A stretch of 64,000 nucleotides of DNA. It comes from a virus. A program made the translations under genes and the position numbers. Each line of letters starts with the position of its first letter. Positions within the stretch are counted from its first letter, which is position 1. Below the pieces are notes generated by a model. That model saw nothing but the letters and a program-made list of their open reading frames with translations, did no database searches and was not told the origin of the DNA. The stretch covers positions 1-64,000 of the IMG/VR virus record IMGVR_UViG_3300042544_003795. One strand, 5' to 3'. Of the stretch, positions 28,677 to 45,419 are shown piece by piece.

Positions 28677-29005
28677 GCTGGTAAACTGTTAAGCTGCCAA
28701 ATTAGAGAAAGCAATAGAAATAGAGAAAGCAATAGCGCACGCTGCTCTAATAAAACACGCCGCTCAAATAGTGCACGCTTATTATAAACAAAGATACTTG
28801 TGAAAGAAAGTATAGTAGAAATGCTTTTATGTGGGTAAGAAGTTAGTGCCACCCTACCCTATATGAGTTTCCATAGTTTCCATAATTTTCATAAATAGGG
28901 GGTTCCCCTATGGCCGCTTAAAGTATTTTTTATTTGACACGCAAATGCGCAATAACTGTTACACCATGCGCCATGTTACACCATGCGACACGTTTTTTGT
29001 CAAGT

Positions 29006-29040
29006 AAAAAAAAAGGACACGGGGTGAACCCGTGTCCTTT
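29006..29040 (-). terminator. Rho-independent terminator
   Basis: GGACACGGG-GTGAA-CCCGTGTCC hairpin with a T-run on the minus strand. Confidence 0.75.
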
Positions 29041-29051
29041 CGTATTACACC

Positions 29052-29552
29052 CTAGGCGACTAGTTCAAAAGTTTTTCCCCCATATTTTATGGTTTTTATG
29101 GATGAGAATTTAATGGCTTTAAAAGCCACTTGTTTCTTACCGGTGACGCCGACTTCCGCCTGTCTCTTGTTCTCTCCTTTCTTACGTAAGAAAGGGATGA
29201 CCTTCTCGGCTGGTATAATATACCCACCCGAAAAGTAGAAAGAATGCATCGGTGGAGAATTGCGCCTCACGTGCGCCAAGTACAGTTCTCCCTTGTGCTC
29301 GATGATCTTCTTGGACACAAACCACTGACCCCACGGAAGCGGGGCAGACACAAACCCGTCACCTCCCTGCATTCTCACTGCGTTTTGGTAGGATGCACCC
29401 ACAACTATCCTCCCCGTAGACACTTTGAGCAAGTCACTGGGCCCGCCTTTTTTAACTTCTGGCGAAGTTATTATCTTAAGTCCAACGATGAGAGCGCCCA
29501 GTTTTTCACTGAGAAGGGAAATCAATTCTGTAGATGAAATGGTGTTGTTCAT
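29052..29552 (-). CDS. Cassette cargo family A (paralog of 32081 and 46733)
   Basis: Shared VGASY..AV..QG...F.S..LPWG.W and KRQAE.GVTGKKQV. Confidence 0.85.
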   Translation of the reverse strand: MNNTISSTELISLLSEKLGALIVGLKIITSPEVKKGGPSDLLKVSTGRIVVGASYQNAVRMQGGDGFVSAPLPWGQWFVSKKIIEHKGELYLAHVRRNSPPMHSFYFSGGYIIPAEKVIPFLRKKGENKRQAEVGVTGKKQVAFKAIKFSSIKTIKYGGKTFELVA

Positions 29553-29560
29553 AGGACTTC

Positions 29561-29589
29561 ACTATACACCCATTCCTTGAATCACGCAA
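29561..29589 (-). promoter_or_regulatory. Sigma70-type early promoter, near-leaderless (representative of cassette promoters)
   Basis: TTGCGT-17-TATAGT-8-ATG. Confidence 0.75.
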
Positions 29590-29663
29590 GCGAATTTTTC
29601 TAATTGTTTTCGTTTTTCTTGGCGTGCCAATGCATGTTACACCATGCACTATGTTACACCATG

Positions 29664-29828
29664 CGCGAGAATCTAGGGTCCATGCCACACTACCATGGCG
29701 CGCGCATTTGTCAAAAAGAAAAACGTAGGGAAAAACACTATGCGCGAGAATCTAGGGTCCATGCCACACTACCATGGCGCGCGCATTTGTCAAAAAGAAA
29801 AACGTAGGGAAAAACACTATGCGCGAGA
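29664..29828. repeat. 79-bp direct duplication (third copy near 30510)
   Basis: GCGCGAGAATCTAGGGTCC...AAACACTAT repeated with a 79-bp period. Confidence 0.85.
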
Positions 29829-30109
29829 AAAAGTGCACCATACGCTATGTTACACCATACGCTATGTTACACCATGCGGCACGTTTTTCGTCAAGTGAAA
29901 AAACACCTGATGCGCTAGTAGAGGAATCCCCTAGGCGACGGGCCCGGCTAGGGGATTCCCCTATGGCCGCTTAAAGTATTTTTTATTTGACACGCAAATG
30001 CGCAATAACTGTTACACCATTCGCCATGTTACACCATGTGCCATGTTACACCATGTGCCATGTTACACCATATGCCATTTTACACCATGCGACACGTTTT
30101 TTGTCAAGC

Positions 30110-30144
30110 AAAAAAAAAGAGCACGGGATACACCCGTGCTCTTT
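30110..30144 (-). terminator. Rho-independent terminator
   Basis: GAGCACGGG-ATACA-CCCGTGCTC hairpin plus T-run on the minus strand. Confidence 0.75.
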
Positions 30145-30155
30145 CGTATTACACC

Positions 30156-30380
30156 TTAGGACATCCTATACGTCTCACACTTCGGTTCTAGTATGGTATC
30201 CCATACCATATAGAGTCTACCGGGCTCCATTAGAGCCACGAAATTGTTGTTGCCAGTCCATATACTGGCGCTGATGTCGCCGGGCCGCTTGACCCTAAAA
30301 TGGCCGGGCTCAAGCGCCCAGCATGAAGGATACTTGCTCCATGTACGATACATGGGACGGTTAAAAGATAGATTTGTCAT
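30156..30380 (-). CDS. Cassette cargo family B (paralog of 35292)
   Basis: NRP..RTWS...SCW....HFRVKRPGD...YMVWDTI; TTGCGT-17-TAGACT-8-ATG. Confidence 0.8.
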   Translation of the reverse strand: MTNLSFNRPMYRTWSKYPSCWALEPGHFRVKRPGDISASIWTGNNNFVALMEPGRLYMVWDTILEPKCETYRMS

Positions 30381-30838
30381 AGGTCACTAGTCTAAAGCCT
30401 ATCGGCCAATCACGCAAGCGAATTTTTCTAATTCTTTTCATTTTTTTTGGCGTGCCAACGCATGTTACACCATGCACCATGTTACACCATGCACCATGTT
30501 ACACCATGTGCGAGAATCTAGGGTCCATGCCACACTACCATGGCGTGCGCATTTGTCAAAAAGAAAAACGTAGGGAAAAACACTATGCGCGAGAAAAAGT
30601 GCACCATACGCTATGTTACACCATACGCTATGTTACACCATGCGGCACGTTTTTCGTCAAGTGAAAAAACACCTGATGCGCTAGTAGAGGAATCCCCTAG
30701 GCGACGGGCCCGGCTAGGGGATTCCCCTATGGCCGCTTAAGGTATTTTTTATTTGACACACGAATAGGCAATTCGTGTTATACCATGCGCTATGTTACAC
30801 CGTGCGGCATGTTACACCATGCCGCATGTTACACCATC

Positions 30839-31165
30839 CTAGTAATCCATGTGACTATCCATCATGGCGCGCATCCACGGGAGATGATGCGCGTCATCGT
30901 CAAATGGAGAATCGCAACGCATGTTGCTAAAGAAGTCATCCGTGCTTTCGCATTTATGAACGTGCTTGCCGTGCTCGCTTAGGAACCAATGGATGTCTTC
31001 ATCGCACCAATCAGCTTCATCATCTAGGAAAGTGTAAACCTCGCATTGCCACAGTCTTTCGCCGTCTTCCTCAGCGAGCTCGATGGCAATAATAAGGTCT
31101 TTCTCGACTGTCCGGTCTGAGGTCAAATCCACTTGTGCCAAGTACGGGTTTTTATGGTTATTCAT
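30839..31165 (-). CDS. Cassette cargo family C, acidic (paralog of 34630 and 36158)
   Basis: NPYL...EVYTFLDDE...E.IHWFL.EH...NMRCDS; promoter 8 nt before ATG. Confidence 0.8.
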   Translation of the reverse strand: MNNHKNPYLAQVDLTSDRTVEKDLIIAIELAEEDGERLWQCEVYTFLDDEADWCDEDIHWFLSEHGKHVHKCESTDDFFSNMRCDSPFDDDAHHLPWMRAMMDSHMDY

Positions 31166-31491
31166 AGGACCTTAAGATAGCGCATGATTGCCATCCACGC
31201 AAGTGAATTTTTCTAATTGTTTTCATTTTTCTTGGCGTGCCTATGCATGTTACACCATGCACCATGTTACACCATGCACCATATTACACCATGCGGCACG
31301 TTTTTCGTCAAGTGAAAAAACACCTGATGCGCTAGTAGAGGAATCCCCTAGGCGACGGGCCCGGCTAGGGGATTCCCTTATGGTCGCTTAGGGTATTTTT
31401 TATTTGACACACGAATAGGCAATTCGTGTTATACCATGCGCTATGTTACACCGTGCGGCATGTTACACCATGCCGCACATGTTACACCATA

Positions 31492-31677
31492 TTAGGATAT
31501 CCAATATAATGTTCCGTTCAATGTCATCGACCCATCCCACCACTCATATCCAAGATACCTATTTTGGACGCGAAGAGAGCAAAAGTCTTGGCCCCTGCGG
31601 CCCACAATGCGGGTCACAGGAGAGGCGCCCCACATGGTGGGGATGGTGTATTCGCTCCGGGAAAGGTTAGGTTTCAT
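31492..31677 (-). CDS. Cassette cargo family D (paralog of 33568 and 34095)
   Basis: IPTMWG.S.VTRIV.RRGQD.C..EWWDG; start set to ATG 31677 from TTGCGT-17-TAGAGT-8-ATG. Confidence 0.8.
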   Translation of the reverse strand: MKPNLSRSEYTIPTMWGASPVTRIVGRRGQDFCSLRVQNRYLGYEWWDGSMTLNGTLYWIS

Positions 31678-32080
31678 AGAACCCCACTCTACAGCCGTTC
31701 CTTGAATCACGCAAGTGAATTTTTCTAATTGTTTTTATTTTTCTTGGCGTGCCAACGCATGTTACACCATGCACCATGTTACACCATGCACCATGTTACA
31801 CCATGCGGCACGTTTTTCGTCAAGTGAAAAAACACCTGATGCGCTAGTAGAGGAATCCCCTAGGCGACGGGCCCGGCTAGGGGATTCCCTTATGGTCGCT
31901 TAGGGTTGACATTATAAATAATTAAAAGATAGTACACCATGCGGCAAAGTAGCAAAGCGCAAAAGCTAGTACACCTTGCGCAAAAGTAGTCCGCCGTACT
32001 TTTTCCGTCACCTTAAAATAAAATAAAAATAAATTCATTAGAACTTGCGTTTTTCAGGATAGGGCTTATAATATAATCGT

Positions 32081-32584
32081 ATGAACACCACTACTCTATC
32101 TCACTCCGCTTTCCTTTCCATGCTTCAGGGAAAGCTTGGCGCTCTCATTATTGGGCTTGAAACCATCACTTCTCCTGAAGTGAAAAAGGGCGGTCCAGCC
32201 CATGTTCAAAAATACTCCAAAGGGAGGATTGTGGTCGGCGCATCCTACGCCAAAGCCGTCCGCGCACAAGGGGGGGAAGGCTTTGAGTCTTCTTCCCTTC
32301 CATGGGGGGAATGGCTGATTTCAAAGAAGGTAGTCACTCACAAGGGGGAATTTTATCTGGCCCATGTTCGCCGGAACAGTCCTCCCCTTAAATCGTTTTT
32401 CACCTCACAAGGTGAAATAATAGACAAGGCTGATATCAAGCCTTTCCTAAGAAAAGTGTACGAGAACAAGCGCCAAGCTGAAGCAGGGGTGACGGGAAAA
32501 AAGCAGGTTGATTTCAAGCTGATAAAATTCAGTTCTATAAAAACCATAAAATACGGGGGGAGAACTTTTGAACTAGTCTCATAA
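32081..32584 (+). CDS. Cassette cargo family A, inverted orientation
   Basis: Clear paralog of 29052; TTGCGT-16-TATAAT-8-ATG. Confidence 0.85.
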   Translation: MNTTTLSHSAFLSMLQGKLGALIIGLETITSPEVKKGGPAHVQKYSKGRIVVGASYAKAVRAQGGEGFESSSLPWGEWLISKKVVTHKGEFYLAHVRRNSPPLKSFFTSQGEIIDKADIKPFLRKVYENKRQAEAGVTGKKQVDFKLIKFSSIKTIKYGGRTFELVS

Positions 32585-32662
32585 ATTCCCCCTATCCTCC
32601 CCCCCCTACTTTCCCCATAAGGAGAGTAGGGGATAAAATTTCCATAACCGTCAGGATTTCCA

Positions 32663-32975
32663 TAATCGCTATTAAGCGCCATAGCTCTTCGAAGTTGTAG
32701 AATAACCATAAGAGCCGTAGCGGCTGAAAGCCGCATAATCGCTATTAAGCGCTATAGCTCTTCGAAGTTGTAGAATAACCATAAGAGCCGTAGCGGCTGA
32801 AAGCCGCATATTCTCTATTACGCGCCATAGCTCTTCGAAGTTGTAGAATAACCATAAGAGCCGTAGCGGCTGAAAGCCGCATATTCTCTATTACGCGCCA
32901 TAGCTCTTCGAAGTTGTAGAATAACCATAAGAGCCGTAGCGGCTGAAAGCCGCATATTCTCTATTACGCTCCATA
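32663..32975. repeat. 73-bp tandem satellite array 1 (about 4.3 units)
   Basis: GCTCTTCGAAG at 32684, 32757, 32830, 32903. Confidence 0.95.
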
Positions 32976-33073
32976 ACCCTTGGAACTTTTACAATAAGGA
33001 TTTCCCCTAGTCACGCTTAAGGTGAATAAGAGAGTGACGCACTATGAACGATTACGCCACTCTCTCATTCTTT

Positions 33074-33277
33074 TTAACTTGCTTGACGTTTCCTTAGTTC
33101 GTCAGCAAATGTCATGCCTTGGTCCCTGTAGTAGTTCTCATTATTGGGGGCTGGCAATGTCGCCATTGCTTCCGCCGCCAAGCGGCAATCCATTACAACC
33201 CAATTGAGGCTTTCAATTGAGAGAGTCTTGGCTTTAGCTTTCCAATAAATGAAGTCTAGTGACGTGGCTTGTTTCAT
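33074..33277 (-). CDS. Cassette cargo family E (paralog of 48818)
   Basis: ATS.DFI.W..KAKTLS...NYY.DQG.TFADEL; TTGCAG-16-TATAAT-8-ATG. Confidence 0.8.
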   Translation of the reverse strand: MKQATSLDFIYWKAKAKTLSIESLNWVVMDCRLAAEAMATLPAPNNENYYRDQGMTFADELRKRQAS

Positions 33278-33567
33278 GACACCTCATTATAACTCATTCG
33301 TTGTAACCTGCAAATGTTTTTTTCAATTACTTTAGTTTTTTTTACCATAGCAAATCTCATGCCAAGTAAAACATTTTTTCTGTCAAGCAAAAAAAATCCC
33401 TTACACGCTAGTAGAGGAATCCCCTAGGCGGCGCCCCCGGCTAGGGGATTTCCCTATGATAGCTTAAGGTATTTTTTAGTTGACACGCAAATGAGTAATG
33501 CGTGTTACACCATGCGCCATGTTACACCGTGCGACATGTTACACCATGCCGCACATGTTACACCATA

Positions 33568-33753
33568 CTAGGATATCCAATATAATGTGCCGTTTACTGT
33601 CATTGAGCCGTCCCACCACTCATATCCTAGATACCTATTGTTAACGCGAAGAGAGCAAAAGTCTTGGCCCCTACGGCCCACAATGCGGGTCACAGGAGAG
33701 GCACCCCACATGGTGGGGATGGAGTATTCGTTCCGGAAAAGGTTAGGTTTCAT
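33568..33753 (-). CDS. Cassette cargo family D
   Basis: Near-identical protein to 31492 with synonymous divergence. Confidence 0.8.
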   Translation of the reverse strand: MKPNLFRNEYSIPTMWGASPVTRIVGRRGQDFCSLRVNNRYLGYEWWDGSMTVNGTLYWIS

Positions 33754-34094
33754 AGAACCCCACTCTACAGCCGTTCCTTGAATCACGCAAGTGAATTTTT
33801 CTAATTGTTTTCATTTTTCTTGGCGTGCCAATGCATGTTACACCATGCACTATGTTACACCATACGCTATGTTACACCATGCACCATGTTACACCATACG
33901 CCATGTTTTTCGTCAAGTAAAAAAATTCCTTACGAGCTAGTAGAGGAATCCCCTAGCCGGGGCCGCCGCCTAGGGGATTCCCTTATGATTGCTTAGGGTA
34001 TTTTTTAGTTGACACGCAAATGCGCAATGCGTGTTACACCATGCCGCATGTTACACCATGCCGCATGTTACACCATGCGGCATGTTACACCTTG

Positions 34095-34286
34095 TTATCT
34101 GATGGTGTACATCTGTCCAAATATGGACATGGTGCCATCCCACCATTCCATGGCTATAAATATGCCACCAACATGAAGCTCGCAGTAATCTTGCCCCCGG
34201 CGGTTGACTACCCTAGTCACACGGGAAAGAGGACCCCACATGGTGGGGATAGGATGGAGTTGTGATCTGAATAGTCGTGGTATCAT
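34095..34286 (-). CDS. Cassette cargo family D (diverged)
   Basis: IPTMWG, RRGQDYC, EWWDG. Confidence 0.8.
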   Translation of the reverse strand: MIPRLFRSQLHPIPTMWGPLSRVTRVVNRRGQDYCELHVGGIFIAMEWWDGTMSIFGQMYTIR

Positions 34287-34629
34287 AGGACTTCAATATA
34301 CCACATGCCTTGAGAGACGCAAGCGAATTTTTCTAATTGTTTTCATTTTTCTTGGCGTGCCTATGCATGTTACACCATGCACTATGTTACACCATACGCT
34401 ATGTTACACCATGCATCATGTTACACCATACGCCATGTTTTTCGTCAAGTAAAAAAATTCCTTACGAGCTAGTAGAGGAATCCCCTAGCCGGGGCCGCCG
34501 CCTAGGGGATTACCCTATAATCGCTTAGGGTATTTTTTAGTTGACACGCGAATGCGCAATAACTGTTACACCATGCGCTATGTTACACCGTGCGGCATGT
34601 TACACCATGCCGCATGTTACACCATGCTC

Positions 34630-34965
34630 TTAATAATCCATTTCGACTTCGAATAGTTCGAACATCCATGGGAGACGACTCGCGCCATCATCCCATACGC
34701 TATCGCAACGCATGTTGCGAAAAAACTCGTCAGTACTTTCGTACTTGTGTATTATACCATGATGTTCCGTTAGGAACCAGTGAATTTCCTCGTCTCCCCA
34801 GTATTCTCCCACTTCGTCATCCAAGAATGTATATACTTCATCCTGAGTGACAGGATCAGAGTCTTCCATTGCCATTTGAAGCGCTATAACTATCTGCGCT
34901 TCAATCGTCTTCTCAGACGATAGGTTGATCAAGCTGAGATAAGGATGGTTACTGTTGTTTATCAT
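34630..34965 (-). CDS. Cassette cargo family C
   Basis: Paralog of 30839. Confidence 0.8.
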   Translation of the reverse strand: MINNSNHPYLSLINLSSEKTIEAQIVIALQMAMEDSDPVTQDEVYTFLDDEVGEYWGDEEIHWFLTEHHGIIHKYESTDEFFRNMRCDSVWDDGASRLPWMFELFEVEMDY

Positions 34966-35291
34966 CGGACCTCACTATACATCCGTTCCTTGAATCACGC
35001 AAGTGAATTTTTCTAATTGTTTTCATTTTTCTTGGCGTGCCAACGCATGTTACACCATGCACCATGTTACACCATGCACCATGTTACACCATGCGGCATG
35101 TTTTCTGTCAAGCAAAAAAATCCCTTACGCGCTAGTAGAGGAATCCCCTAGCCGAGCCCGCCGCCTAGGGGATTACCCTATAATCGCTTAGGGTATTTTT
35201 TAGTTGACACGCAAATGCGCAATGCGTGTTACACCATGCGCCATGTTACACCGTGCGACATGTTACACCATGCCGCACATGTTACACCACC

Positions 35292-35522
35292 CTAGGACAT
35301 CCTGTATATTCGACACTCAAAGTTTGACCCTATGGTGTCCCACACCATGTACATTTTCCCGCTTTCCATCAGACCGATAAATCGGCCTTCCGCCGTCCAC
35401 ATGTTCAGATTTACATCTCCCGGTCTTTTGACTCTGAAATGTGGCTGGTCAATTGACCAGCAGGAGACTGTGGACGACCATGTGCGAAAAGAAGGACGGT
35501 TGGCAGTAGTTGTGTTGCTCAT
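35292..35522 (-). CDS. Cassette cargo family B
   Basis: Paralog of 30156. Confidence 0.8.
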   Translation of the reverse strand: MSNTTTANRPSFRTWSSTVSCWSIDQPHFRVKRPGDVNLNMWTAEGRFIGLMESGKMYMVWDTIGSNFECRIYRMS

Positions 35523-35800
35523 AGGACTTCACTATACATCCGTTCCTTGAATCACGCAAGCGAATTTTTTTAATTGTTTTCTTTTTTCTTGGCGTGCCAA
35601 TGCATGTTACACCATGCACCATGTTACACCATACGCTATGTTACACCATGCACCATGTTACACCATACGCCATGTTTTTCGTCAAGTGAAAAAACACCTG
35701 ATGCGCTAGTAGAGGAATCCACTAGGCGACGGGCCCGGCTAGGGGATTCCCCTATGGCCTCTTAAGGGATTCCCCTAAGTTATAAAAACCAGCATCCCTA

Positions 35801-36131
35801 TAATCTCTATTAAGCGCTATAGCTCTTCGAAGTCGTAGAGTAGCTATAAGAGCCATAGCGGCTGAAAGCCGCATAATCGCTATTAAGCACTATAGCTCTT
35901 CGAAGTCGTAGAGTAGCTATAAGAGCCATAGCGGCTGAAAGCCGCATAATCGCTATTAAGCGCCATAGCTCTTCGAAGTCGTAGAGTAGCTATAAGAGCC
36001 ATAGCGGCTGAAAGCCGCATAATCGCTATTAAGCGCCATAGCTCTTCGAAGTTGTAGAATAACCATAAGAGCCGTAGCGGCTGAAAGCCGCATAATCGCT
36101 ATTAAGCGCTATAGCTCTTCGAAGTCGTAGA
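35801..36131. repeat. 73-bp tandem satellite array 2 (about 4.5 units)
   Basis: GCTCTTCGAAG at 35822, 35895, 35968, 36041, 36114. Confidence 0.95.
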
Positions 36132-36157
36132 AAATCTATAATGAATGTTACATCATC

Positions 36158-38037: not shown

Positions 38038-38251
38038 TCAAGGGAAAAAATCTAAGAACCCCCCTAAGAGGGGGTAGGGGATTCCCCTACGCGGCGTCCC
38101 CGGCTAGGGGATTCCCCTATGGTACGATAAGGGAATTTTTTAGTTGACTCTCAAATGCGCAATACATGTTACACCATGCGGCGAGCCAAGATATATGAAA
38201 TAAATCGAAAATATCCGTTGCATTTTTTCCTCCCTGTGATATACTGATTAC

Positions 38252-38479
38252 ATGAGTTTACCACATCTTAAGTATATACATTTATCACGATTCGATAAAT
38301 TGGACTTCTTGATTAACAATTGCGGCGAAGGTTTTGTTAAAGAGTGCACTCTCTTGACCGAATTAGTCGGGTACATGTCTGACTCCGACTTTTCTGATTT
38401 CTTTGATAAAATCTGCCGTGAGTGGGGTATTGAGGTATCAGAAGAAATCTGCTGGGATTGGGAGACTGAAGGAGTCTAA
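38252..38479 (+). CDS. Cassette cargo family F (paralog of 42355)
   Basis: RF.KLDFLI.NC...FVKEC.LLTELVGYMSDSDFSDFFDK. Confidence 0.8.
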   Translation: MSLPHLKYIHLSRFDKLDFLINNCGEGFVKECTLLTELVGYMSDSDFSDFFDKICREWGIEVSEEICWDWETEGV

Positions 38480-38699
38480 GGGGAGACGATTAGAAAGTCA
38501 AGAAAACAACTCCCCTAAGGGGGAGTAGGGGATTCCCCTACGCGGCGTCCCCGGCTAGGGGATTCCCCTATGGTACGATAAGGGAATTTTTAGTTGACTC
38601 ATAAATGCGCAATGCGTGTTACACCATCCCACGACAAAAAAAAGAAAAAGAATTGAAAATATCCGTTGCTTTCCTGAAACGCTGGACTATAGTCAAGAC

Positions 38700-39113
38700 A
38701 TGACTCTTCAATCACCACCCGCTATCATCAAAGTTCCTTCCAACGTCTTGGCCGATGCCATGATCAACCGCTACTTCATCGCTGGCTTCCTGAACTGTTC
38801 AGAAGAGCAAATCTCTGACTGGGATATCAACTGGGAGAAAGGACACCTTTCTGTCACCTTTATCCCTGAATCCGATTTTTGGGGAGACTCTCTCAGGGAG
38901 TACCTCAACATAGAGTTCCAGCTTTTCGGAGAGGACATAGAAGGAAACGTCTGGGAGTTTCCCAACTCAGACAGAGTTCTAGAGTGGTTCTCTCTAGAGA
39001 AGAAAGGCCCCATGGGATCATGGAACGCGGGAGTAGCGGCTCACAAAGACAGCATGGAATGGGTGTGCTGGATGATAGCAAATAGCAAGGACGGCCTACT
39101 GAAAGATATGTAA
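38700..39113 (+). CDS. Cassette cargo, acidic hypothetical
   Basis: Start moved to ATG 38700 after TTGCTT..TATAGT. Confidence 0.7.
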   Translation: MTLQSPPAIIKVPSNVLADAMINRYFIAGFLNCSEEQISDWDINWEKGHLSVTFIPESDFWGDSLREYLNIEFQLFGEDIEGNVWEFPNSDRVLEWFSLEKKGPMGSWNAGVAAHKDSMEWVCWMIANSKDGLLKDM

Positions 39114-39337
39114 AGTTGTTACACCAAGCAAGTCAAATAAAAAACTCCCCTAAGGGGGAGTAGGGGATTCCCCTACGCGGCGTCCCCGGCTAGGGGATTC
39201 CCCTATGGTCGCTTAGGGGAATTTTTATGTTGACTCATGAAAAAATAATTCATGTTACACCATCGCCTCCAAAGAAAAAGAAAAACAATTCAAAATATCC
39301 GTTGACTCTCTCTTGGCTTGTGTTATAGTATGGGACT

Positions 39338-39541
39338 ATGAATACCCTATATGTTGTCGAGGCCGAGTCCGGAGTTCACCACGGGAATTGCGAGCTAGGA
39401 GTGGGCCTAAGCCGCGCCGCCGCCATATGTGATGCCTACGGCCCCGGAGGTAAGCTCCCCCGCCATGCGTGGGTCAATATCGTCTCCCGCGAAAAGGAGC
39501 CGAAAAGGTTCGAGCGCCTAAAGGCTCAAAATGGCCTTTAG
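39338..39541 (+). CDS. Cassette cargo, hypothetical
   Basis: TTGACT..TATAGT promoter before ATG. Confidence 0.7.
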   Translation: MNTLYVVEAESGVHHGNCELGVGLSRAAAICDAYGPGGKLPRHAWVNIVSREKEPKRFERLKAQNGL

Positions 39542-39660
39542 TGTCAAGCGAAAAACACCCCTAGGACACCCTAGGGGATTTCCCTACGCGGGGACGCCGC
39601 CTAGGGGATTCCTCTATGATTGCTTAGGGGATTTGCCTAGGGTATAAAAACCATCATTCC

Positions 39661-39912
39661 TATAATCACTATTAAGGTAAATAGCTCTTCGAAGTTGTAT
39701 AATCACTATTAAAGGCTATAGCTCTTCGAAGTTGTAGAATATCCATAAGAGCCGTAGCGGCTGAAAGCCGCATATTCTCTATTACGCGCCATAGCTCTTC
39801 GAAGTTGTAGAATACCCATAAGAGCCGTAGCGGCTGAAAGCCGCATATTCTCTATTACGCGCCATAGCTCTTCGAAGTTGTATAATAACTATTAAGAGCT
39901 ATAACCCTTCAA
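39661..39912. repeat. Satellite array 3 (37-bp monomer then 73-bp units)
   Basis: GCTCTTCGAAG at 39684, 39721, 39794, 39867. Confidence 0.9.
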
Positions 39913-39917: not shown

Positions 39918-40244
39918 TCAAATCAATCCCTTCACAATTAACCATGAAGGAGAACCATAACTATCCGTTCCGTCAGGTTCAACCGTTTCACCTAGGATAG
40001 ACTTGCAATTGCCGTTACTGTCCCATCGTGATAGACTTGACACAGAAGGTTCCTTCTTCCCTAGCATTTTAATAGCCGTACCATTGGAGATTTTAAACTC
40101 TGACTCTGAACCGTACACTTTGACACGAGGACGATGACCGATAGCAGTCTCTTCCCATCTAATAGAGAATTTGTTCCCCGCTTTCAGGACACTGCCGTCT
40201 TTCATTTTGATTTCAGTTTTATTGATAAATGAGTGAGTTTTCAT
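39918..40244 (-). CDS. Hypothetical protein
   Basis: C....G..VEPDG.D..G.PSWL motif seen in phage early proteins. Confidence 0.7.
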   Translation of the reverse strand: MKTHSFINKTEIKMKDGSVLKAGNKFSIRWEETAIGHRPRVKVYGSESEFKISNGTAIKMLGKKEPSVSSLSRWDSNGNCKSILGETVEPDGTDSYGSPSWLIVKGLI

Positions 40245-40301
40245 GTATTCAGTTTACCACACGGTTTTCAGATAGCAAAAAGTATTTTCAATTATTTTGT
40301 T

Positions 40302-40601
40302 TTATTGATAAAAGAAATTTTTGGCCCTCATCACAAGAGAAAGATATTGTGAGATTCTGATATGATGAAAAAGTCCACGATCAGGAGATTTTAAATAACC
40401 TTTAATTCCACCGTACTTAGCTATTGACTTATCCGGGTTACGTGGTGGATACAACGGGTTACCCTTGCCTTCTATCTGACCCCAGATATCTACTGTATCG
40501 CCCCACACGGCGGCAGTCAGTCGGATAGTTCCACCCTGTAGTGATGGAACCGTTAGGGTGACGTGATATGGGTGAAGGCCGGGTTGCAATTCAGGTTTCA
40601 T
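40302..40601 (-). CDS. Hypothetical protein
   Basis: 99 aa ORF. Confidence 0.6.
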   Translation of the reverse strand: MKPELQPGLHPYHVTLTVPSLQGGTIRLTAAVWGDTVDIWGQIEGKGNPLYPPRNPDKSIAKYGGIKGYLKSPDRGLFHHIRISQYLSLVMRAKNFFYQ

Positions 40602-40603
40602 TT

Positions 40604-40846
40604 TTAGTCGCTGAGAAGTTCATCTCTTTCCTCATTGTAAATAGACAAACATGAAGGCCTTTCAAAATCAATATCGCCTAACGATAAATCGCCTAAAGAG
40701 ACTTTTTTCCATTCTACGTTGTCAAGCGTATAATGAAAAACGTCCCACTTGACATAGCAATCTTTGACTTGATCCCAGCTATCGACTGGAATATCGACAT
40801 CTGTTGAAGAGCCAACCGAATAAGACGCATCAATTGTGATTTTCAT
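40604..40846 (-). CDS. Cargo family G (paralog of 41927)
   Basis: MK.....SY.V.SS...D.P......KD......V.HY.L....W.K..L. Confidence 0.7.
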   Translation of the reverse strand: MKITIDASYSVGSSTDVDIPVDSWDQVKDCYVKWDVFHYTLDNVEWKKVSLGDLSLGDIDFERPSCLSIYNEERDELLSD

Positions 40847-40976: not shown

Positions 40977-41153
40977 ATGAGCCTAGACAAAGCAATCGAA
41001 CACAATAAGGAGAAAAGAGCACCGTTCCGGAAAAGTAAACGCTTTGATAGAACTTGCCGCAATCATGGAAAGTGTCCATACTGTGAAGGGAACAGAACTT
41101 TTCAATCAGAAAAAGAACTTCAGAGAATAGAAAGCTTTGGAGAAGAAGAATAG
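40977..41153 (+). CDS. Small Cys/His-containing phage protein (58 aa, not in ORF track)
   Basis: MSLDKAIEHNKEKRAPFRKSKRFDRTCRNHGKCPYCEGNR. Confidence 0.7.
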   Translation: MSLDKAIEHNKEKRAPFRKSKRFDRTCRNHGKCPYCEGNRTFQSEKELQRIESFGEEE

Positions 41154-41337
41154 AGAATGTCAAGCACCGCCTCCCCTTAAGTGGGAATAGGGGATTACCC
41201 TATGCCTACCCCCCCGCATAGGGGATTCCCTTATAGTGTCTTAGGGTTGACTTGGCACGCCGCCTGCTTGTGTAAAGAAAATTGAAAACAATCGAAAATA
41301 TCCGTTGCAATCTAATACCCCTGTGACATAATAAAGC

Positions 41338-41577
41338 ATGAAACTATCTAAACTGATTAAGGTTTTGCAAAATGCGAAAAAAGAACTAGGGGACGTTCCT
41401 GTTATGGTGATGGATGAAGAAATGGGGAGTTGGGAATATCTCTCTGAGGTTCTCAAACTTCATCCTTATACTGGACCTTACGGGTGTATGGATAGAACCA
41501 AACCCGCAGATTCGATTGGCCTTGTTAGAAATAAAGGTTTCTCATCTAAAGACCTGCTACTAGGACAGAGAGATTAA
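41338..41577 (+). CDS. Cassette cargo, hypothetical
   Basis: MKLSKLI..LQ..K...GDVPV; N-terminus resembles 37765. Confidence 0.7.
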   Translation: MKLSKLIKVLQNAKKELGDVPVMVMDEEMGSWEYLSEVLKLHPYTGPYGCMDRTKPADSIGLVRNKGFSSKDLLLGQRD

Positions 41578-41630: not shown

Positions 41631-41909
41631 GTGAAAGATGATCTTCTTTACATACCTCGCCTTGCTGAACTTTACGATTGGTTTCGTATTGAGGAACAGA
41701 ATGGTGAGATGATTGCTTGCGGTGGAATATTTCCAGCTTATGAGATAAAGGCTGGCCAGCGATGGCAAGGTTCTAGTGGTCACACTGTTCTAGTCGATGA
41801 AGTGGATTCCTATTCAGTTCATTACTCATGGGACGAACAGGGAGTAAAGAAAACCCATAAAAAATCCCACTTCGCTTTCCAGTGCCGGTATTGTCTTGTT
41901 TTATCCTAA
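41631..41909 (+). CDS. Hypothetical protein
   Basis: FAFQCRY C-terminal motif; own promoter. Confidence 0.65.
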   Translation: MKDDLLYIPRLAELYDWFRIEEQNGEMIACGGIFPAYEIKAGQRWQGSSGHTVLVDEVDSYSVHYSWDEQGVKKTHKKSHFAFQCRYCLVLS

Positions 41910-41926
41910 TCTAACCTAATAACAAA

Positions 41927-42175
41927 ATGAAAGTTGAAATTGTCACATCATACAGAGTATTCTCATCTGCCTTTATCGACCTCCCTATTGAAAATATAAA
42001 GGAAATTAAAGATTACTTTATAATCGACAATGTTTTGCATTACTCATTGAAAGATGAAAAATGGGAAAAAATCACCTTGCCAGAGGGTGAGGATGAATTC
42101 GAAAAATCTAGTGAAGTGAAATTCTATAGTGCTGAGTCTCACCAAACAGTAATGAAAATGTCTAAGTCTATCTAA
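41927..42175 (+). CDS. Cargo family G
   Basis: Paralog of 40604. Confidence 0.65.
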   Translation: MKVEIVTSYRVFSSAFIDLPIENIKEIKDYFIIDNVLHYSLKDEKWEKITLPEGEDEFEKSSEVKFYSAESHQTVMKMSKSI

Positions 42176-42354
42176 GTCAAGCTCCTCCTCCCCCTAAGGG
42201 GGAGTAGGGGATTCCCCTACGCGGCGTCCCCGGCTAGGGGATTCCCCTATAGCGTCTTAGGGTTGACTTGGCACGCCGCCTGCTTATGCAAAGAAAATTG
42301 AAAACAATTGAAAATATCCGTTGCTCTTTTCCTTCCCTGTGATATACTAATTAC

Positions 42355-42549
42355 ATGAGAACACGATTCGAAAAACTAGACTTCCTGATTGAAAATTGCA
42401 ACGAGACTTTTGTTAAAGAGTGCGTACTCTTGACCGAGCTCGTAGGCTATATGTCGGATTCCGACTTCTCCGACTTTTTTGACAAAGTTTGTAGGGAGTG
42501 GGACATTCGCATAGGACTTTATTGGGACAGTACAGAAGAAACTGAATAA
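42355..42549 (+). CDS. Cassette cargo family F
   Basis: Paralog of 38252. Confidence 0.8.
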   Translation: MRTRFEKLDFLIENCNETFVKECVLLTELVGYMSDSDFSDFFDKVCREWDIRIGLYWDSTEETE

Positions 42550-42769
42550 AAGTCAAGCGCCGCCTCCCCGAAAGGGGAGTAGGGGATTCCCCTACGCGGC
42601 GTCCCCGGCTAGGGGATTCCCCTAGGATGCTTTAGTAGATTACCCTAGGGTAGCTTAGGGTTGACAAATTTTTAGGCAAAGTTGGCACGCCTTCTGCTAT
42701 GCAAAGAAAAATGCAATTAATCGAAAGTATTTGTTGATTGATTGCTTAATAGGGTTATTGTGTGGGACT

Positions 42770-43783
42770 ATGAATAAAGAAATTGCATCTTGCTTCTCCT
42801 CCGTCGTTGGCCAATCCCAGATTGTCGCCAATCGTATCCTGTCCCATAGCGCCTTCGCTGCGGGCAATAATTCGCCCTATAGCGTTTGTTACACCGGAGC
42901 TGCGGGCTTAGGTAAAACTCAATTGCTCCGCGCGGAGTTAGCGGCCCGCGCCATGGCAATCCAGATTCGATTTGGACGTGAAGCCAATGTTTTCATGCTC
43001 CGGTCACCTCAGGAAATCCGCCTTGCTGGCGAGGCATTCTTTGAGTTTATCGGCAATGTCTCGGACGGTGACGGCGTTGTTATCGACGAGCTTCATGAGA
43101 TTGAAATCTCGTCTACCGTTCAACTCCGGAAACTTAAGCTCATCTTGAAGGGCTTGCTTGACAACGGGCAAGGCAAAATCCGTTCCGTGAAGATTGACGA
43201 TGATACGGTCATCTCCCGGCCTAAAGAGGAAATCTTTTTCGCCGCTGGCACTAACTTCCCAGAGAAAATCAAGGACGGTTCCGCCATCATCTCCCGGTTT
43301 GGTGGAGAGACGCCGCTGGACCTTTATACAGAGGATGAATTGACCAAAATTCTTAAACTCATGAGTGAGTCCGCCGGGCTTCGTGTGAACGAGAATACGC
43401 TTCTCCTTCTCGCCAAGTGTGGCCGTGGAACTGCCCGCCCACTAGAATCAATCGTTAGCTACCTTAGCAAAGTAGCATCAATCTCAGAGAAGACGACTAT
43501 CAATCGCGCGGAGGCACTAGAGGCAATGCGGGCTTTGAGTTTGTTTCCCCTTGGCGTTTCAAAGCGGGAAATCTCAATCCTTATCCGCAGCAAGGGCCAA
43601 GGCTTAGCGGTCAGAATGTTGCCAGTGATTTTTGCCGTCGAGCCGAAATCAGTCAATCAAAGCGTTAGCTTTCTTTGTGCTTATGGCTTCCTCAGCCTAC
43701 GGGGCGGAGTTGTCAATCTGTCCCCTCGCGGCGCGGCCTACTTGGACCAGTTAAAGGCTGAAAAGTTCTCTTTAGAATCCTAG
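42770..43783 (+). CDS. RuvB-like AAA+ ATPase
   Basis: VVGQ, GAAGLGKT Walker A, VIDELHEI Walker B, SRFG, Y..DEL..IL, RGTAR sensor II, winged-helix C-terminus; start set at ATG 42770. Confidence 0.8.
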   Translation: MNKEIASCFSSVVGQSQIVANRILSHSAFAAGNNSPYSVCYTGAAGLGKTQLLRAELAARAMAIQIRFGREANVFMLRSPQEIRLAGEAFFEFIGNVSDGDGVVIDELHEIEISSTVQLRKLKLILKGLLDNGQGKIRSVKIDDDTVISRPKEEIFFAAGTNFPEKIKDGSAIISRFGGETPLDLYTEDELTKILKLMSESAGLRVNENTLLLLAKCGRGTARPLESIVSYLSKVASISEKTTINRAEALEAMRALSLFPLGVSKREISILIRSKGQGLAVRMLPVIFAVEPKSVNQSVSFLCAYGFLSLRGGVVNLSPRGAAYLDQLKAEKFSLES

Positions 43784-43822
43784 GCCTTTTATCCCTCCCT
43801 TCTTTCTTACCTTACTTACCTT

Positions 43823-44149
43823 ATGAATGTTTCAATCTCCTACTCGCCATCGTCTCTCTCAGATTTTCTCGCCGCTTTGGAAGCGGTAAAAGGCATGAAC
43901 GGGAAAAGCGTTTCCGTTTCGCCAGCTTCTCTGAACTGTCCTGTTTCAAAGTACGTAGAAAAAACTGGAGCTTCCCGTTACCGTCGCACTCCGGAAGGTT
44001 GCCAATCCGGGCTTTCTAATTTGGACGACCTGAAAAAGCGGGCTTTGCTAGGCGACGCCATAGCGGCAGAATGTCTAGGCGACGAAATCCCGGAAAGTGA
44101 TTCTGAGTTGTCAAGCGAAGATAATTCGCCGATTGAAGCGATTTTCTAA
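43823..44149 (+). CDS. Hypothetical protein co-transcribed with the RuvB-like gene
   Basis: 108 aa ORF followed by a terminator. Confidence 0.65.
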   Translation: MNVSISYSPSSLSDFLAALEAVKGMNGKSVSVSPASLNCPVSKYVEKTGASRYRRTPEGCQSGLSNLDDLKKRALLGDAIAAECLGDEIPESDSELSSEDNSPIEAIF

Positions 44150-44158
44150 TTGACAGGA

Positions 44159-44190
44159 AAGGGCGGCTGATTTTCAGCCGCTCTTTTTTT
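44159..44190 (+). terminator. Rho-independent terminator
   Basis: GCGGCTGA-TTT-TCAGCCGC followed by a T-run. Confidence 0.8.
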
Positions 44191-44365
44191 TGCATTGTCA
44201 ACCCTTAATCTACCCTAGAGGAATCCATTAGAGCACCCTAGGGGAATCCCCTAGCCGGGGACGCCGCGTAGGGGAATCCCCTAGTAAGGCCTAAGGTTTA
44301 CATCTTAATGAAACATAATACACCTTATTCATCCCCCCCCCATAAGGGGGAGGTATTTTGATATG

Positions 44366-45064
44366 TTACACCTGCACCACGAAACCAGAGTTGTCTTTTC
44401 TGGCTTTGCCTTTATCGACAAGCCCAACCACCACGCCCCTAGTGTCGAGGAAACGAAGGTCATTCTTGTCACCGTTCACAACCGGCGTTCCATGCCAGCT
44501 CTCGGGCAGTGAGCGACGGAAAACAACCGCCACGTTTCCACCTCGTGAGCGGATGGCGTGAACGTGCCGCTCGTTTGACTCACTGCGGGAGAATGTCAAA
44601 CTGTAGTTGGCGGGCATTTTCCCGTCGAGAAAATCCATCATGCGTTTGTACCCCTTGGTGTAATCGTACCAAGTAACCTCAGGGAAAAGCTCGAACAAGT
44701 TTTTCCCGTCCTGAACGTCGAGCGATTCCCACGGGATATCGCTGGTAAGGTTAAGCCGGATGGCCAACCGCATCCCATTTTTCTTGGCTTTCTTAATAGC
44801 CGCTTGAATTTCCTTAATTAGTTGTTTAGAGAATAGGTCAAAATTCTCCTTCAAGAGTTTAGTCTTGGCGATTCTAGCCGCTTGAACCGTCGAGAATGCA
44901 CCATGGCCTGAGGTGTTTAAACAGGAGAAGGTGCAACCACGGCTCGCCCAAGTGCATACGTTATAACCCGACAGATTGGCGGGAGCCAAATGGATGCCGA
45001 GAGTCGTCCAGCCTTCCTTCGTGCCCTTCATGATTTTTGCGTTCGCCGTAGTGAGTAATTTCAT
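44366..45064 (-). CDS. GP88-family phage protein (Cys-cluster, radical-SAM-like)
   Basis: LAPA..SG.NVC..AS.GC...CL..SG, RLN.TSDI.W, YDYTK, DLRFLD. Confidence 0.75.
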   Translation of the reverse strand: MKLLTTANAKIMKGTKEGWTTLGIHLAPANLSGYNVCTWASRGCTFSCLNTSGHGAFSTVQAARIAKTKLLKENFDLFSKQLIKEIQAAIKKAKKNGMRLAIRLNLTSDIPWESLDVQDGKNLFELFPEVTWYDYTKGYKRMMDFLDGKMPANYSLTFSRSESNERHVHAIRSRGGNVAVVFRRSLPESWHGTPVVNGDKNDLRFLDTRGVVVGLVDKGKARKDNSGFVVQV

Positions 45065-45419
45065 CGTTCACTATAATAGCCCGCTTTCCACCGATTGCAA
45101 ATTTATTTTCGATTAATTCTACTTTTCTCACATAGCGGATAGCGTGCCAAGTCAACCCTTAATCAACCCTAGGGGAATCCATTAGAGCACCCTAGGGAAA
45201 TCCCCTAGCCGGGGCCGCCGCATAGGGGAATCCCCTAGTAGTCGTTAAGGTTAAAATTTACTTGACTTTTTAATATGCCTATCACCCCTAATAGGGTTTT
45301 ATAGTAAATATAAAGTATTGAAAAATGCAATGCTCTCTATGGATATTATAGTGGGCACTGAGATTGCGGAGACTATGGAGAGTATGGCAATAATAGTTAT
45401 AGCCGCCATAAATAGCGTG

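Follow-up and report, generated by a model that had tools for sequence, protein, structure and literature searches.

The viral DNA analysed here, a stretch of 64 kb referred to as the window, carries a cassette array at positions 28896-45237 composed of 21 linkers, 28 small ORFs and 24 sigma70-like promoters belonging to individual cassettes. The array probably represents a set of early-gene cassettes with hairpin linkers that is reshuffled by homologous recombination as in the PeSL elements; the same confidence extends, jointly, to the source being a previously undescribed large freshwater phage of which this would be the hyperplastic early-gene region. The repeated scaffold of palindromes, 17-bp repeats and promoters described in a first-pass annotation is real: every element was located where it had been placed, in counts far above chance expectation. 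The array of "about 20 single-gene cassettes" reported there exists as such; its count has to be raised to 28 ORFs with 24 promoters, and a few cassettes carry two or three genes. In the mechanism we favor, each small gene would be a self-contained unit (A-rich element, promoter, leaderless start, ORF and its own small hairpin) and units would be separated by a common linker terminating transcription both ways. Replicating phage DNA would recombine among the linkers by ordinary homologous recombination, deleting, duplicating, replacing and homogenising cassettes; the outcome would be differing cassette sets in relatives and linkers evolving in concert. Recombination between linkers is expected because 21 near-identical copies lie in one region, and we infer that it is homologous rather than enzyme-directed.

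The core of the linker is the palindrome TAGGGGATTCCCCTA, present in two copies per linker. With up to 2 mismatches it gave 85 strand-matches (0.11 expected), all within 28896-45237 and grouped as 20 pairs or triplets, with one copy standing alone. The linker folds as a hairpin of ~95 nt with an A run at one flank and a T run at the opposite one, and should for this reason act as a bidirectional terminator. Predicted folds were a single long hairpin, of -67 kcal/mol (z -4.4; linker 37559-37661) and -90 kcal/mol (z -5.5), and 44 terminator-like sites were counted against 16.4 +/- 3.8 expected. The TTGAC hexamer noted earlier is present, but not as a promoter-type hexamer: it forms the base of the linker hairpin, pairs with GTCAA on the opposite side and is unusable as a -35 box. 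The palindromes hardly vary (93-98% identity) and contain no compensatory changes, against a divergence of ~0.5 per site at synonymous positions nearby. As a plain terminator would not need such invariance, something presumably reads the palindrome sequence itself; this counts against the terminator and homologous-recombination model taken alone.

At orthologous junctions the linker loops differ by lineage, measuring 15 nt or 21 nt, and among linker copies they are found in both orientations. On the plus strand, the left boundary is a half-linker (28896-28938; a single palindrome and TTGAC) at which homology with the relatives L029, L025 and L030 stops. The linker at 29890-29991 has the plan GTCAA, palindrome pair, TTGAC and the loop GGCGACGGGCCCGGC, which recurs at 30656-30757, 31307-31408 and 31819-31910. 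Following a linker at 33382-33484, the loop is flipped at 33912-34013 (compared with 29934-29948, 13/15 positions match as reverse complement and 8/15 directly), 34444-34545 and 35107-35208. An irregular linker (35681-35777) adjoins one of the 73-bp tandem arrays present within the cassette array (32661-32997, x4.6; 35800-36131, x4.5; and a 37/73-bp array at 39661-39899, all on the plus strand), and the linker at 36548-36621 lies where the minus block switches to the plus block. Further linkers are found at 37559-37661, 38037-38148, 38497-38598 and 39132-39234, the last two with a small hairpin and T run readable as a minus-strand terminator. Those at 39543-39639 (three palindromes), 41159-41251, 42176-42267 and 42552-42665 are devoid of the 17-bp repeat, termed R17. 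At the right end two linkers lie on the minus strand: at 44197-44283 the whole linker is inverted, with AAT at the palindrome centre and a loop identical to that of the plus block once reverse-complemented, and the inverted linker at 45151-45266 forms the right boundary.

The promoter box GAAAATATCCGTTGC or its minus-block variant is located upstream of nearly every small ORF. Early promoters follow a single plan, an A-rich upstream element, a sigma70-type TTGCNT, 16-18 nt and an extended -10, as at 36697-36741 on the plus strand (GAAAATATCCG-TTGCGT-N16-TATAGT, with the ATG after 6 nt). The start codon lies 4-8 nt past the -10 box in 23/24 array cassettes, mostly 6 or 8, so the cassette mRNAs should be leaderless; no Shine-Dalgarno sequence was present upstream of any of 38 genes inspected. 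The cassette ORFs are followed by a gene-specific small hairpin. A common promoter family together with a common linker family supports the earlier view of a co-regulated gene set, whose timing would be early.

The 17-bp repeats had been described as part of the unit, which holds up to 39263; from 39.5 kb rightward the linkers carry none. The R17 core TGTTACACCAT, with at most 1 mismatch, gave 70 matches (0.78 expected), all on the plus strand and all in 28957-39263, arranged in 26 arrays of 1-5 copies; five tandem copies, for instance, lie at 30010-30094, flanked by a linker and by the terminator of the gene at 30156-30380. Over the left two thirds of the array, one or more R17 follow the linker at a constant 18 nt from its hairpin. 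The one-strand polarity of R17 is beyond the reach of the homologous-recombination cassette model alone. A tentative addition to that model, and no replacement for it, is that the R17 units may duplicate the late promoter of the phage itself: a phage sigma would read them, each in the leftward direction on the minus strand (ATG-GTGTAA-N8-ATG). R17 and the hairpin 18 nt downstream would then make up ~20 small minus-strand transcription units, yielding a conserved hairpin RNA or a late switch-off of, or antisense to, the early cassettes; we hold the promoter identity and these consequences together to be possible rather than probable.

Several observations argue for such late promoters. The motif RGTGTAW precedes the ATG by 8-10 nt in seven structural-arm genes (exactly 8 in five), these being 7 of only 33 hits outside the R17 domain, and L134 and L135, which are distant relatives, also have it ahead of genes. 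An ORF on the plus strand at 13664-14341 encodes a sigma factor of which only region 2 was detected, a candidate reader of the motif. The minus strand of R17 is GGTGTAA-N8-ATG, with the motif and spacing of the late genes; 6+8+3 gives the 17-bp period, and 71/73 late-motif hits inside the R17 domain are on the minus strand. The core varies chiefly at one position (C 91%, T 8%), which corresponds to R of the motif; the N8 spacer accommodates the variable 5-6 nt. The fixed distance to the hairpin fits as well, the small hairpin and T run of several linkers would stop R17-started transcripts, and minus-oriented cassettes of relatives retain R17 in the array orientation. In contrast, the core keeps bases invariant (ATG and CA) that are dispensable in the late motif, R17 lacks the A/T-rich stretch found upstream of true late sites, and in relatives R17 is mostly single (124/173 arrays), hence without an ATG at N8; a sequence-specific DNA-binding regulator would yield an equal conservation pattern. 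T4 late promoters have a -10-type box, lack a -35 box and are read by gp55, a sigma with region 2 only. The phage resembles this system in its single -10-type box without -35 and in its encoded sigma with only region 2 detectable; it differs in the motif itself, RGTGTAW, and in the start codon 8 nt after it. We know of no counterpart to a late motif reiterated as a 17-bp tandem repeat in an early region.

As first reported, the cargo lies on the minus strand at 29.0-36.4 kb (10/11 ORFs) and mainly on the plus strand at 36.7-44.1 kb, and the array is GC-richer (0.40-0.49) than the structural arm (0.30-0.34); GC3 is 0.34-0.65 in the cargo and 0.22-0.35 in the structural arm. The minus block holds members of families c34 (29052-29552, 166 aa, with its own predicted leaderless promoter), c35 (30156-30380, 74 aa), c13 (30839-31165, 108 aa, acidic), c9 (31492-31677, 61 aa) and c27 (33074-33277, 67 aa, with a paralog at 48818-49027). 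Paralogs follow for c9 (33568-33753, 92% amino-acid identity to 31492-31677 and dN/dS 0.17; 34095-34286, 63 aa), c13 (34630-34965, 111 aa; 36158-36421, 87 aa) and c35 (35292-35522, 76 aa), and a c34 paralog lies on the plus strand (32081-32584, 167 aa). The plus block starts with the c3 cassette (36742-36948, 68 aa), whose second gene encodes a phage lysozyme with a signal peptide (37014-37556), and continues with c28 (37765-38037, 90 aa, acidic, GTG start), c6 (38252-38479, 75 aa), c5 (38700-39113, 137 aa) and c1 (39338-39541, 67 aa). Three minus-strand ORFs come next: c19 (39918-40244, 108 aa), one of 99 aa (40302-40601) for which no promoter of its own was found, and one of 80 aa (40604-40846) downstream of a minus promoter at ~40900. 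The plus strand then carries cargo of 58 aa (40977-41153) and 79 aa (41338-41577, promoter box at 41294), c24 (41631-41909, 92 aa), the promoter of which abuts the preceding stop codon with no linker between, an ORF of 82 aa (41927-42175), a c6 paralog (42355-42549, 64 aa), a RuvB-like AAA+ ATPase (c8, 42770-43783) and an ORF of 108 aa (43823-44149). The ATPase gene has its own predicted leaderless promoter and is kept in relatives (dN/dS 0.03). A GP88 family protein (c7), the model of which weakly resembles radical-SAM folds, is encoded on the minus strand at 44366-45064.

The cargo is under purifying selection (median dN/dS 0.15; below 0.5 in 30/30 testable families). With this selection and its promoters, it looks expressed rather than archived, and the suggestion that the phage is "storing" genes is not borne out. 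Because no recognisable families were found for the array's small cargo, the proposed host-takeover or anti-defence role is conjectural.

The same array grammar was found in L006 and in ~30 freshwater metagenome contigs. Cargo of the window and of these relatives forms a common pool of ~35 families; comparison of cassette order bore out the shuffling proposed earlier, as order, content and copy number differ, with indels and duplications and with breakpoints at linkers. L029, the closest relative at 88-92% identity, has six different cassettes in place of the entire 8-kb minus block, the left breakpoint being the first palindrome. Homology breakpoints fell outside ORF interiors in 39/45 cases compared with 48% expected (p = 7e-8). 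The stop-proximal segment tracks the upstream gene (0.81 vs 0.55) and the promoter segment the downstream gene (0.85 vs 0.61), and the middle intergenic segment tracks neither neighbour. Crossover sites vary, being at the promoter box in L006 and directly past the R17 core in L035 compared with L006.

All relatives are metagenome assemblies, in which repeats of 100-200 bp may give rise to mis-joins, and several orders were independently reproduced. It is improbable that the architecture is static and purely regulatory, with the apparent shuffling due to misassembly and ordinary illegitimate recombination: short-read assemblers could be misled by repeats of this length and the ~99% identical contigs L037 and L024 are colinear, which indicates that turnover is not fast, but independent metagenomes, two or three per order, reproduced each of four different orders (among them those of L024/L032/L037 and L031/L040/L019) and the breakpoints are strongly non-random. 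Segmental duplications within the window, at 76-94% identity, are also old and real, not collapsed repeats. We give equally little credence to linkers being selfish miniature inverted-repeat elements (REPIN- or MITE-like) in intergenic sites, with regulation secondary. Linkers do measure ~100 bp, end in GTCAA/TTGAC inverted repeats, and are intergenic and highly similar with lineage-specific sequence variants; they share with REP/REPIN and RAYT systems the paired inverted repeats, the long intergenic hairpin after genes and the many copies. However, neither RAYT nor transposase was found among the ~65 ORFs of the window, copies are limited to the early array within the 64 kb, and their register with the stop codon and next promoter is always constant. 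Lineage-specific loops at orthologous junctions fit gene conversion better than repeated insertion.

Least probable of all is an integron-like site-specific system, in which the folded palindrome pair would act as attC with a recombinase elsewhere in the genome (>150 kb): successive single-gene cassettes with a hairpin-forming imperfect inverted repeat after each one and content varying among relatives do recall integron arrays (IntI, attI, attC), both loop orientations show DNA transactions at the palindromes, palindrome conservation would suit a protein-binding site and the recombinase search covered 64 kb only, but crossover positions vary from event to event with no single crossover point, the sequence-conserved hairpin is without the R/L box pattern, the 7-1-7 palindrome lacks a 6-8 bp strand-exchange spacer, and some cassettes (c22, c23, c27) move without linkers. 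The window contains no integrase, transposase or other recombinase among the ~65 ORFs scanned, in agreement with the first-pass annotation; with the cassettes' own promoters and two orientations, this makes the array PeSL-like and argues against its label "integron-like" as a mechanism.

The PeSL analogy, which had also been named, is the best fit. Papers on PeSL describe an equivalent cassette logic in T4-type phages, with a stem-loop terminator, an AT-rich stretch and a sigma70-like early promoter, a motif flanking orphan genes in hyperplastic regions, and motif-bounded indels and replacements among relatives with variable crossovers and no dedicated recombinase (PMC2839356, PMC4122927), all as in the array. 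The array differs in that the phage is unrelated (a T4-like core was not seen), the motif sequence is unrelated, the hairpin is ~95 nt long and built on two sequence-invariant 15-bp palindromes where PeSL has a short G/C stem, a 17-bp repeat of fixed polarity lies at constant spacing, mRNAs are predicted to be leaderless, and the 21 linkers are packed into 16 kb in a far denser and more regular series. Sequence-invariant palindromes, the match of the R17 minus strand to RGTGTAW-N8-ATG and the RuvB-like ATPase encoded within the array go beyond PeSL. The SPO1 host-takeover module and the SPO1-like terminal-repeat early genes resemble the array in their many clustered small early genes, strong host-type promoters and terminators; we know of no stereotyped linker or polar repeat in the SPO1 region. 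Families c22, c23 and c27 are located outside the array in the window and inside it in relatives, and on the minus strand at 57289-58106 cassettes with an array-type promoter box and no linkers have homologs within the L006 array.

The two repeats forming the scaffold of the array at 28896-45237 were counted over the 64-kb window. The core of the 17-bp repeat R17, TGTTACACCAT, was matched 70 times with at most one mismatch (0.78 expected), and all 70 copies lie on the plus strand within 28957-39263, the R17 domain. The palindrome TAGGGGATTCCCCTA gave 85 strand-matches with at most two mismatches (0.11 expected), all inside 28896-45237; they form 20 pairs or triplets, with a lone copy at the left edge. 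Repeat finding showed that array units recur at spacings of 0.4-1.0 kb. The repeated scaffold reported in the first-pass annotation is present far above chance, and the two compositional features reported with it were also recovered. Firstly, the array is richer in GC than the structural arm to its left (0.40-0.49 compared to 0.30-0.34). Secondly, 10 of 11 ORFs are on the minus strand at 29.0-36.4 kb (the minus block) and the plus strand is the commonest at 36.7-44.1 kb (the plus block). Instead of about 20 single-gene cassettes, the array has 28 ORFs, 24 of them with their own promoter, and a few cassettes contain two or three genes; multi-gene cassettes are found at 36742-37556, where the cargo family c3 is joined to a lysozyme gene, and at 39918-40846. 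The GC content at third codon positions is 34-65% in array cargo and 22-35% in structural genes (28896-45237 compared to 14000-28000), which may reflect the fit of early genes to host codon use, descent from another source, or a hot spot of recombination with GC-biased gene conversion. The combination of linker and repeats is a new one, and the finding is real and well structured.

Cassettes are separated by a linker with a fixed order on the plus strand. It opens with GTCAA(G) and continues through a variable A-rich or GC-rich piece and a small hairpin (CTCCCCCTAAGGGGGAG and variants) to palindromes a and b, which enclose a loop of 15 nt; next comes a piece with TTAGGGG and a T run at its end, and TTGAC closes the linker. 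In every linker of the R17 domain, R17 begins exactly 18 nt to the right of TTGAC. RNA folding showed that the stretch from GTCAA to TTGAC is one long hairpin (-67.4 kcal/mol and z -4.4 for a linker of the plus block; -89.7 kcal/mol and z -5.5 for an example from the minus block folded with its flanks). In this fold TTGAC closes the stem at its base, so it is no -35 box. A sigma70 promoter of the form TTGAC-N18-TGTTAC was rejected, since TGTTAC as a -10 box has no A at -11 and TACACC gives a 20-nt spacer. Judged by its sequence, the linker looks like a bidirectional terminator, with a stable hairpin, A runs to the left and T runs to the right. A simple scan found 44 terminator-like sites compared to 16.4 +/- 3.8 expected, and small hairpins followed by a T run on the minus strand are found in several plus-block linkers. 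The palindromes are 93-98% identical across about 100 copies whereas the flanking spacers are just 62-75% identical; among the same lineages synonymous sites differ by about 0.5 per site. Because a plain terminator does not need such invariance of sequence, a protein or another nucleic acid probably reads the palindrome. No covariation was detected in the hairpin among 32 aligned linkers, in which the paired columns scarcely vary and are uninformative on structure, and a search of the window against Rfam returned three tRNAs and nothing else.

Promoters were searched with the pattern TTGNNN-N16-18-TANNNT followed by a start codon within 4-10 nt, and 24 ORFs of the array were found to have their own. 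The -35 box of the cassettes is TTGCGT or a near variant, the -10 box is usually of the extended type (TGn), and an A-rich stretch lies upstream of the -35 box (GAAAATATCCG in the plus block, AGAAAAATTCGC in the minus block). A generic promoter scan showed no enrichment (29 found compared to 28 expected); it is blind to these promoters as their -35 box, TTGCNT, scores just 3 of 6. The distance from the -10 box to the start codon is mostly 6 nt in the plus block and 8 nt in the minus block, with a range of 4-8 nt in the array. Given this spacing, the cassette mRNAs should be leaderless, with transcription beginning at or next to the start codon. No Shine-Dalgarno sequence was seen before any of 38 genes inspected across the window, and starts seem to be leaderless or nearly so throughout the phage. 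The small cargo ORFs had no family match in Pfam or PHROGs, and Atlas look-ups for c34 and c5 were also empty; dN/dS was below 0.5 in 30 of 30 testable cargo families (median 0.15), which indicates that they are real genes. A second compact style of cassette occupies 54800-57350 (-), where small genes are each led by AACTCTAATATAATAAT and then ATG, with a -10 box 3-5 nt upstream of the start; three paralogs at about 56.3-57.05 kb (-) start with M..KEEA.KELEEFK.

Relatives of the array were all found as assemblies. Megablast against 50,697 phage records matched neither the array nor the structural arm to any deposited phage, and relatives of the terminase are all metagenomic; an exact 40-mer of the terminase gene had no match in IMG/VR. 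Exact-pattern scans recovered a single contig from IMG/VR (L006, about 82% identical) and about 30 contigs from JGI/ENA metagenomes, most of them of freshwater origin; in all of these, palindrome pairs, R17 and the promoter box are arranged as in the window. Clustering of 240 promoter-led ORFs from the window and 32 loci gave about 35 shared cargo families. A loose backbone order is kept (c10- ... c1+ c19- c4+ c24+ c6+ c8+ c7-, with the strand of each family), around which insertions, deletions, replacements and duplications are numerous. In L006, c2, c15, c12, c4 and c18 are each present twice; in the window, c9 and c13 are present three times and c34 and c35 twice. Contig L029, which is the nearest relative (88-92% identity), is colinear with the window up to the first palindrome at 28911; six other cassettes then replace the whole 8-kb minus block, and colinearity resumes at the lysozyme cassette. 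The families c22, c23 and c27 lie outside the linker array of the window (at 57.7, 54.9 and 48.8 kb), with the same promoter box and no linkers, and sit inside the arrays of L006, L015 and L041. The minus block of the window is itself made of old segmental duplications that are 76-94% identical. Comparison of the window with its relatives gave 45 non-redundant points at which homology ends; ORF interiors cover 52% of the region, yet 39 of these points lie outside them (p = 7e-8). The earlier proposal that cassettes are shuffled is supported by the differences in order, content and copy number. Each of four different cassette orders was recovered from two or three independent metagenomes, which speaks against artefacts of assembly. 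Contigs that are about 99% identical are colinear, so that cassette turnover is moderate and not rapid.

To locate the exchanges, 38 distinct linkers were split into segments and the similarity of each segment was compared with that of the upstream and of the downstream gene. The piece from the stop codon to palindrome a tracks the upstream gene (0.81 compared to a background of 0.55) and the stretch between the -35 box and the start codon tracks the downstream gene (0.85 compared to 0.61); neither gene is tracked by the palindromes, by the TTGAC region or by the spacer that leads to R17. The crossover point differs between events, being at the promoter box, just past the R17 core or in the palindrome region. 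In L006, two copies of c15 have linkers identical up to the promoter box, and contigs L035 and L006 have a common linker up to just past the R17 core. The loop between the palindromes is specific to the lineage: it is 15 nt long (CGCGGCGTCCCCGGC) in the plus block of the window and in L011, L012 and L029, and 21 nt long (TGCGGGCGGGGGGCCCCATTG and variants) in L006, L024, L031 and others. The loops stay lineage-specific even where the gene-linked flanks mark junctions as orthologous, so that the linkers evolve in concert. Relative to R17 the loop may point either way, some copies being exact reverse complements of each other, and two whole linkers are inverted around the minus-strand gene 44366-45064. 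The pattern fits frequent homologous exchange between linkers rather than a single enzyme-defined crossover.

The sequence of R17 recalls a motif of the structural genes. RGTGTAW is found 8-10 nt before the ATG of seven structural-arm genes, at exactly 8 nt for five of them; in the interval 1-28700 these sites are at 3921 (-), 4303 (-), 7586 (-), 9737 (-), 10356 (-), 12064 (-) and 18323 (+), and they account for seven of the 33 matches outside the R17 domain. The genes concerned have no Shine-Dalgarno sequence. The motif recurs in distant relatives, at 1619 and 3709 in contig L134 and at 11928 and 18865 in contig L135. On its minus strand, R17 reads ATG-GGTGTAA-N8-ATG, with a motif and spacing identical to those of the structural-arm genes (6+8+3 gives the 17-bp period). 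Variation in the R17 core is mainly at the base that corresponds to R in the motif, the N8 spacer takes up the variable bases of the repeat, and 71 of 73 motif matches in the R17 domain are on the minus strand. R17 keeps its orientation next to inverted cassettes too, both in the window and among relatives, and its placement is regular, about 45 nt upstream of the -35 box of each promoter in the domain and always at the same 18 nt from the linker on its left. These features point to an element of late-promoter type that would fire leftward into the hairpin, a reading we hold as possible and somewhat doubtful. The phage sigma factor at 13664-14341 has region 2 as its sole detectable part. As the main alternative, R17 would be an operator for a DNA-binding regulator. 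In every locus R17 is on the strand of the main promoter orientation. Its arrays of 3-5 copies are peculiar to the window, relatives having one or two. Its minus strand may also resemble the core of E. coli Ter. A Met-Val-stop minigene (ATG GTG TAA) is unlikely to be the purpose of R17, as only tandem copies would provide one and 124 of the 173 arrays in relatives hold a single copy. An inversion system that crosses over at R17 was rejected because the repeats flanking inverted cassettes are direct and not inverted. Upstream of gene 29052-29552, two R17 arrays have between them 2.2 copies of a 79-bp unit with 98% identity (29656-29829), and a single copy lies at the equivalent site near 30510-30585.

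As the first-pass annotation had reported, the window holds no recognisable integrase or transposase: about 65 ORFs covering the 64 kb were scanned with Pfam, PHROGs or NCBIfam and none is an integrase, a resolvase or an HUH enzyme. The ORF at 42770-43783, flanked by linkers on both sides and preceded by its own leaderless promoter, matches the RuvB family TIGR00635 with an E value of 1e-15 over residues 9-307, yet at 57.6 bits compared to a cutoff of 299. All of its PDB matches below E 0.2 are RuvB (best E 1.2e-10), and the Walker motifs GAAGLGKT and VVIDELHE are present. By these matches the ORF is probably a distant relative of RuvB and not an equivalog. In all relatives the gene keeps its place as the array's right end is reached, and its dN/dS is 0.03. 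A putative branch-migration motor adjoining recombining palindromes is suggestive, if circumstantial.

The array is best read as a region of early-gene cassettes driven by homologous recombination, comparable to the promoter-early stem-loop (PeSL) cassettes of T4-type phages, and not as an integron. PeSL combine a stem-loop terminator, an AT-rich stretch and an early promoter of sigma70-like type; located beside orphan genes in hyperplastic regions, they recombine motif to motif, with variable crossovers and no dedicated recombinase (PMC2839356, PMC4122927). A further mark of PeSL is the excision of circles between neighbouring motifs. The intergenic unit of the array has the same three elements by sequence prediction, its cargo belongs to no known family, and differences between relatives are bounded by the motif. 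Every PeSL feature that could be tested on the array itself was found, in line with the analogy first drawn for it. However, this phage matches no deposited phage and its motif differs in sequence from that of T4-type phages, so that the array is an analogue of PeSL and not a member. Several features go beyond PeSL: sequence-conserved palindromes, a strictly one-stranded 17-bp repeat that copies a putative late-gene motif, predicted genome-wide leaderless starts and a RuvB-like ATPase in the array.

The label of integron-like, taken as a mechanism, fails on several counts. A tyrosine recombinase IntI adjoining the array was not found among the ORFs scanned in the window. Integron cassettes are promoterless, served by one common promoter and in one orientation, whereas 24 cassettes here have their own promoter, 11 of them are on the minus strand and the two blocks diverge. 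In attC sites the structure is conserved and the sequence variable; the hairpin of the array is conserved in sequence and shows no covariation. The consensus of the attC R and L boxes is RYYYAAC / GTTRRRY, and the GTCAA/TTGAC base of the hairpin is off the R-box pattern. Finally, crossovers occur at varying points in the array and at a single fixed point in integrons. A REPIN/RAYT or MITE system differs in that the window holds no cognate HUH transposase and the palindrome copies are all confined to 28.9-45.2 kb instead of being dispersed.

The ways in which phages acquire, lose and swap small accessory genes are not well understood, and PeSL are among the few mechanisms proposed. The same logic is found here in an unrelated, uncultured lineage of freshwater phages, with much greater regularity and with about 30 natural variants to compare, which argues that promoter/terminator linkers serving as recombination handles are a general solution. 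With its sequence-conserved palindromes, one-stranded R17 and predicted leaderless starts, the locus is a compact test bed for early-to-late switching, the insulation of transcription units and the concerted evolution of regulatory DNA. A lattice of two layers might join these features. Leaderless early cassettes would depend on the host sigma factor, and about 20 minus-strand units interleaved with them, each made of R17 as a late promoter for the phage sigma factor and of the invariant double-palindrome hairpin 18 nt downstream, would produce reiterated hairpin RNA or antisense that shuts the early genes off; the palindromes would be hot spots that keep linkers uniform and reshuffle cargo, perhaps via the RuvB-like motor. 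As a joint proposal it is speculative and unlikely to be right in all its parts.

Four co-oriented tandem arrays were found at 32661-32997, 35800-36131, 39661-39899 and 45419-45798, with periods of 73, 73, 37/73 and 49 bp. They have in common the motif TATTAAGCGCC...CTCTTCGAAGTTG with a CTTCGAAG palindrome; as their periods are not multiples of 3 they are non-coding, and they are possibly an origin or a binding array.

Among the other ORFs of the window, the terminase is the sole one matching a known head or tail PHROG family. Also recognised were the sigma region-2 protein (13664-14341), PhoH, glycosyltransferases, a metallophosphatase, the lysozyme and YopX. An ERCC4 (XPF/Mus81-type) structure-specific nuclease (15480-16397, +) lies directly upstream of the large terminase, and the synteny of sigma...ERCC4-terminase is also present in L134 and L135. 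A weak match to an outer-membrane beta-barrel and the leaderless starts are the only hints to the host. GP88 (PF17338; 44366-45064, -), the family c7 of the backbone, belongs to a very large and well conserved family of aquatic phages (6507 matches, many about 60% identical); a back-translation scan of viral contigs gave no confirmed relatives. C37, C44 and C48 are invariant (CX6CX3C), and the best matches of the AlphaFold model (pLDDT 84), which are weak, are almost only radical-SAM enzymes (Z 5.0-5.8); on this model GP88 may be a radical-SAM-like enzyme. To the right of the array, 47648-48685 (-) encodes a DUF932 / TIGR03299 'phage/plasmid-like protein'. Three tRNA genes (Met-CAT, Thr-TGT and Asn-GTT) are interleaved with small ORFs at 60879-62310, and the N-terminal domain of a TilS-like lysidine synthetase, a PP-loop protein, is encoded among them (60994-61617, -), so that the CAT tRNA could be of the Ile2 type and modified by the phage enzyme.
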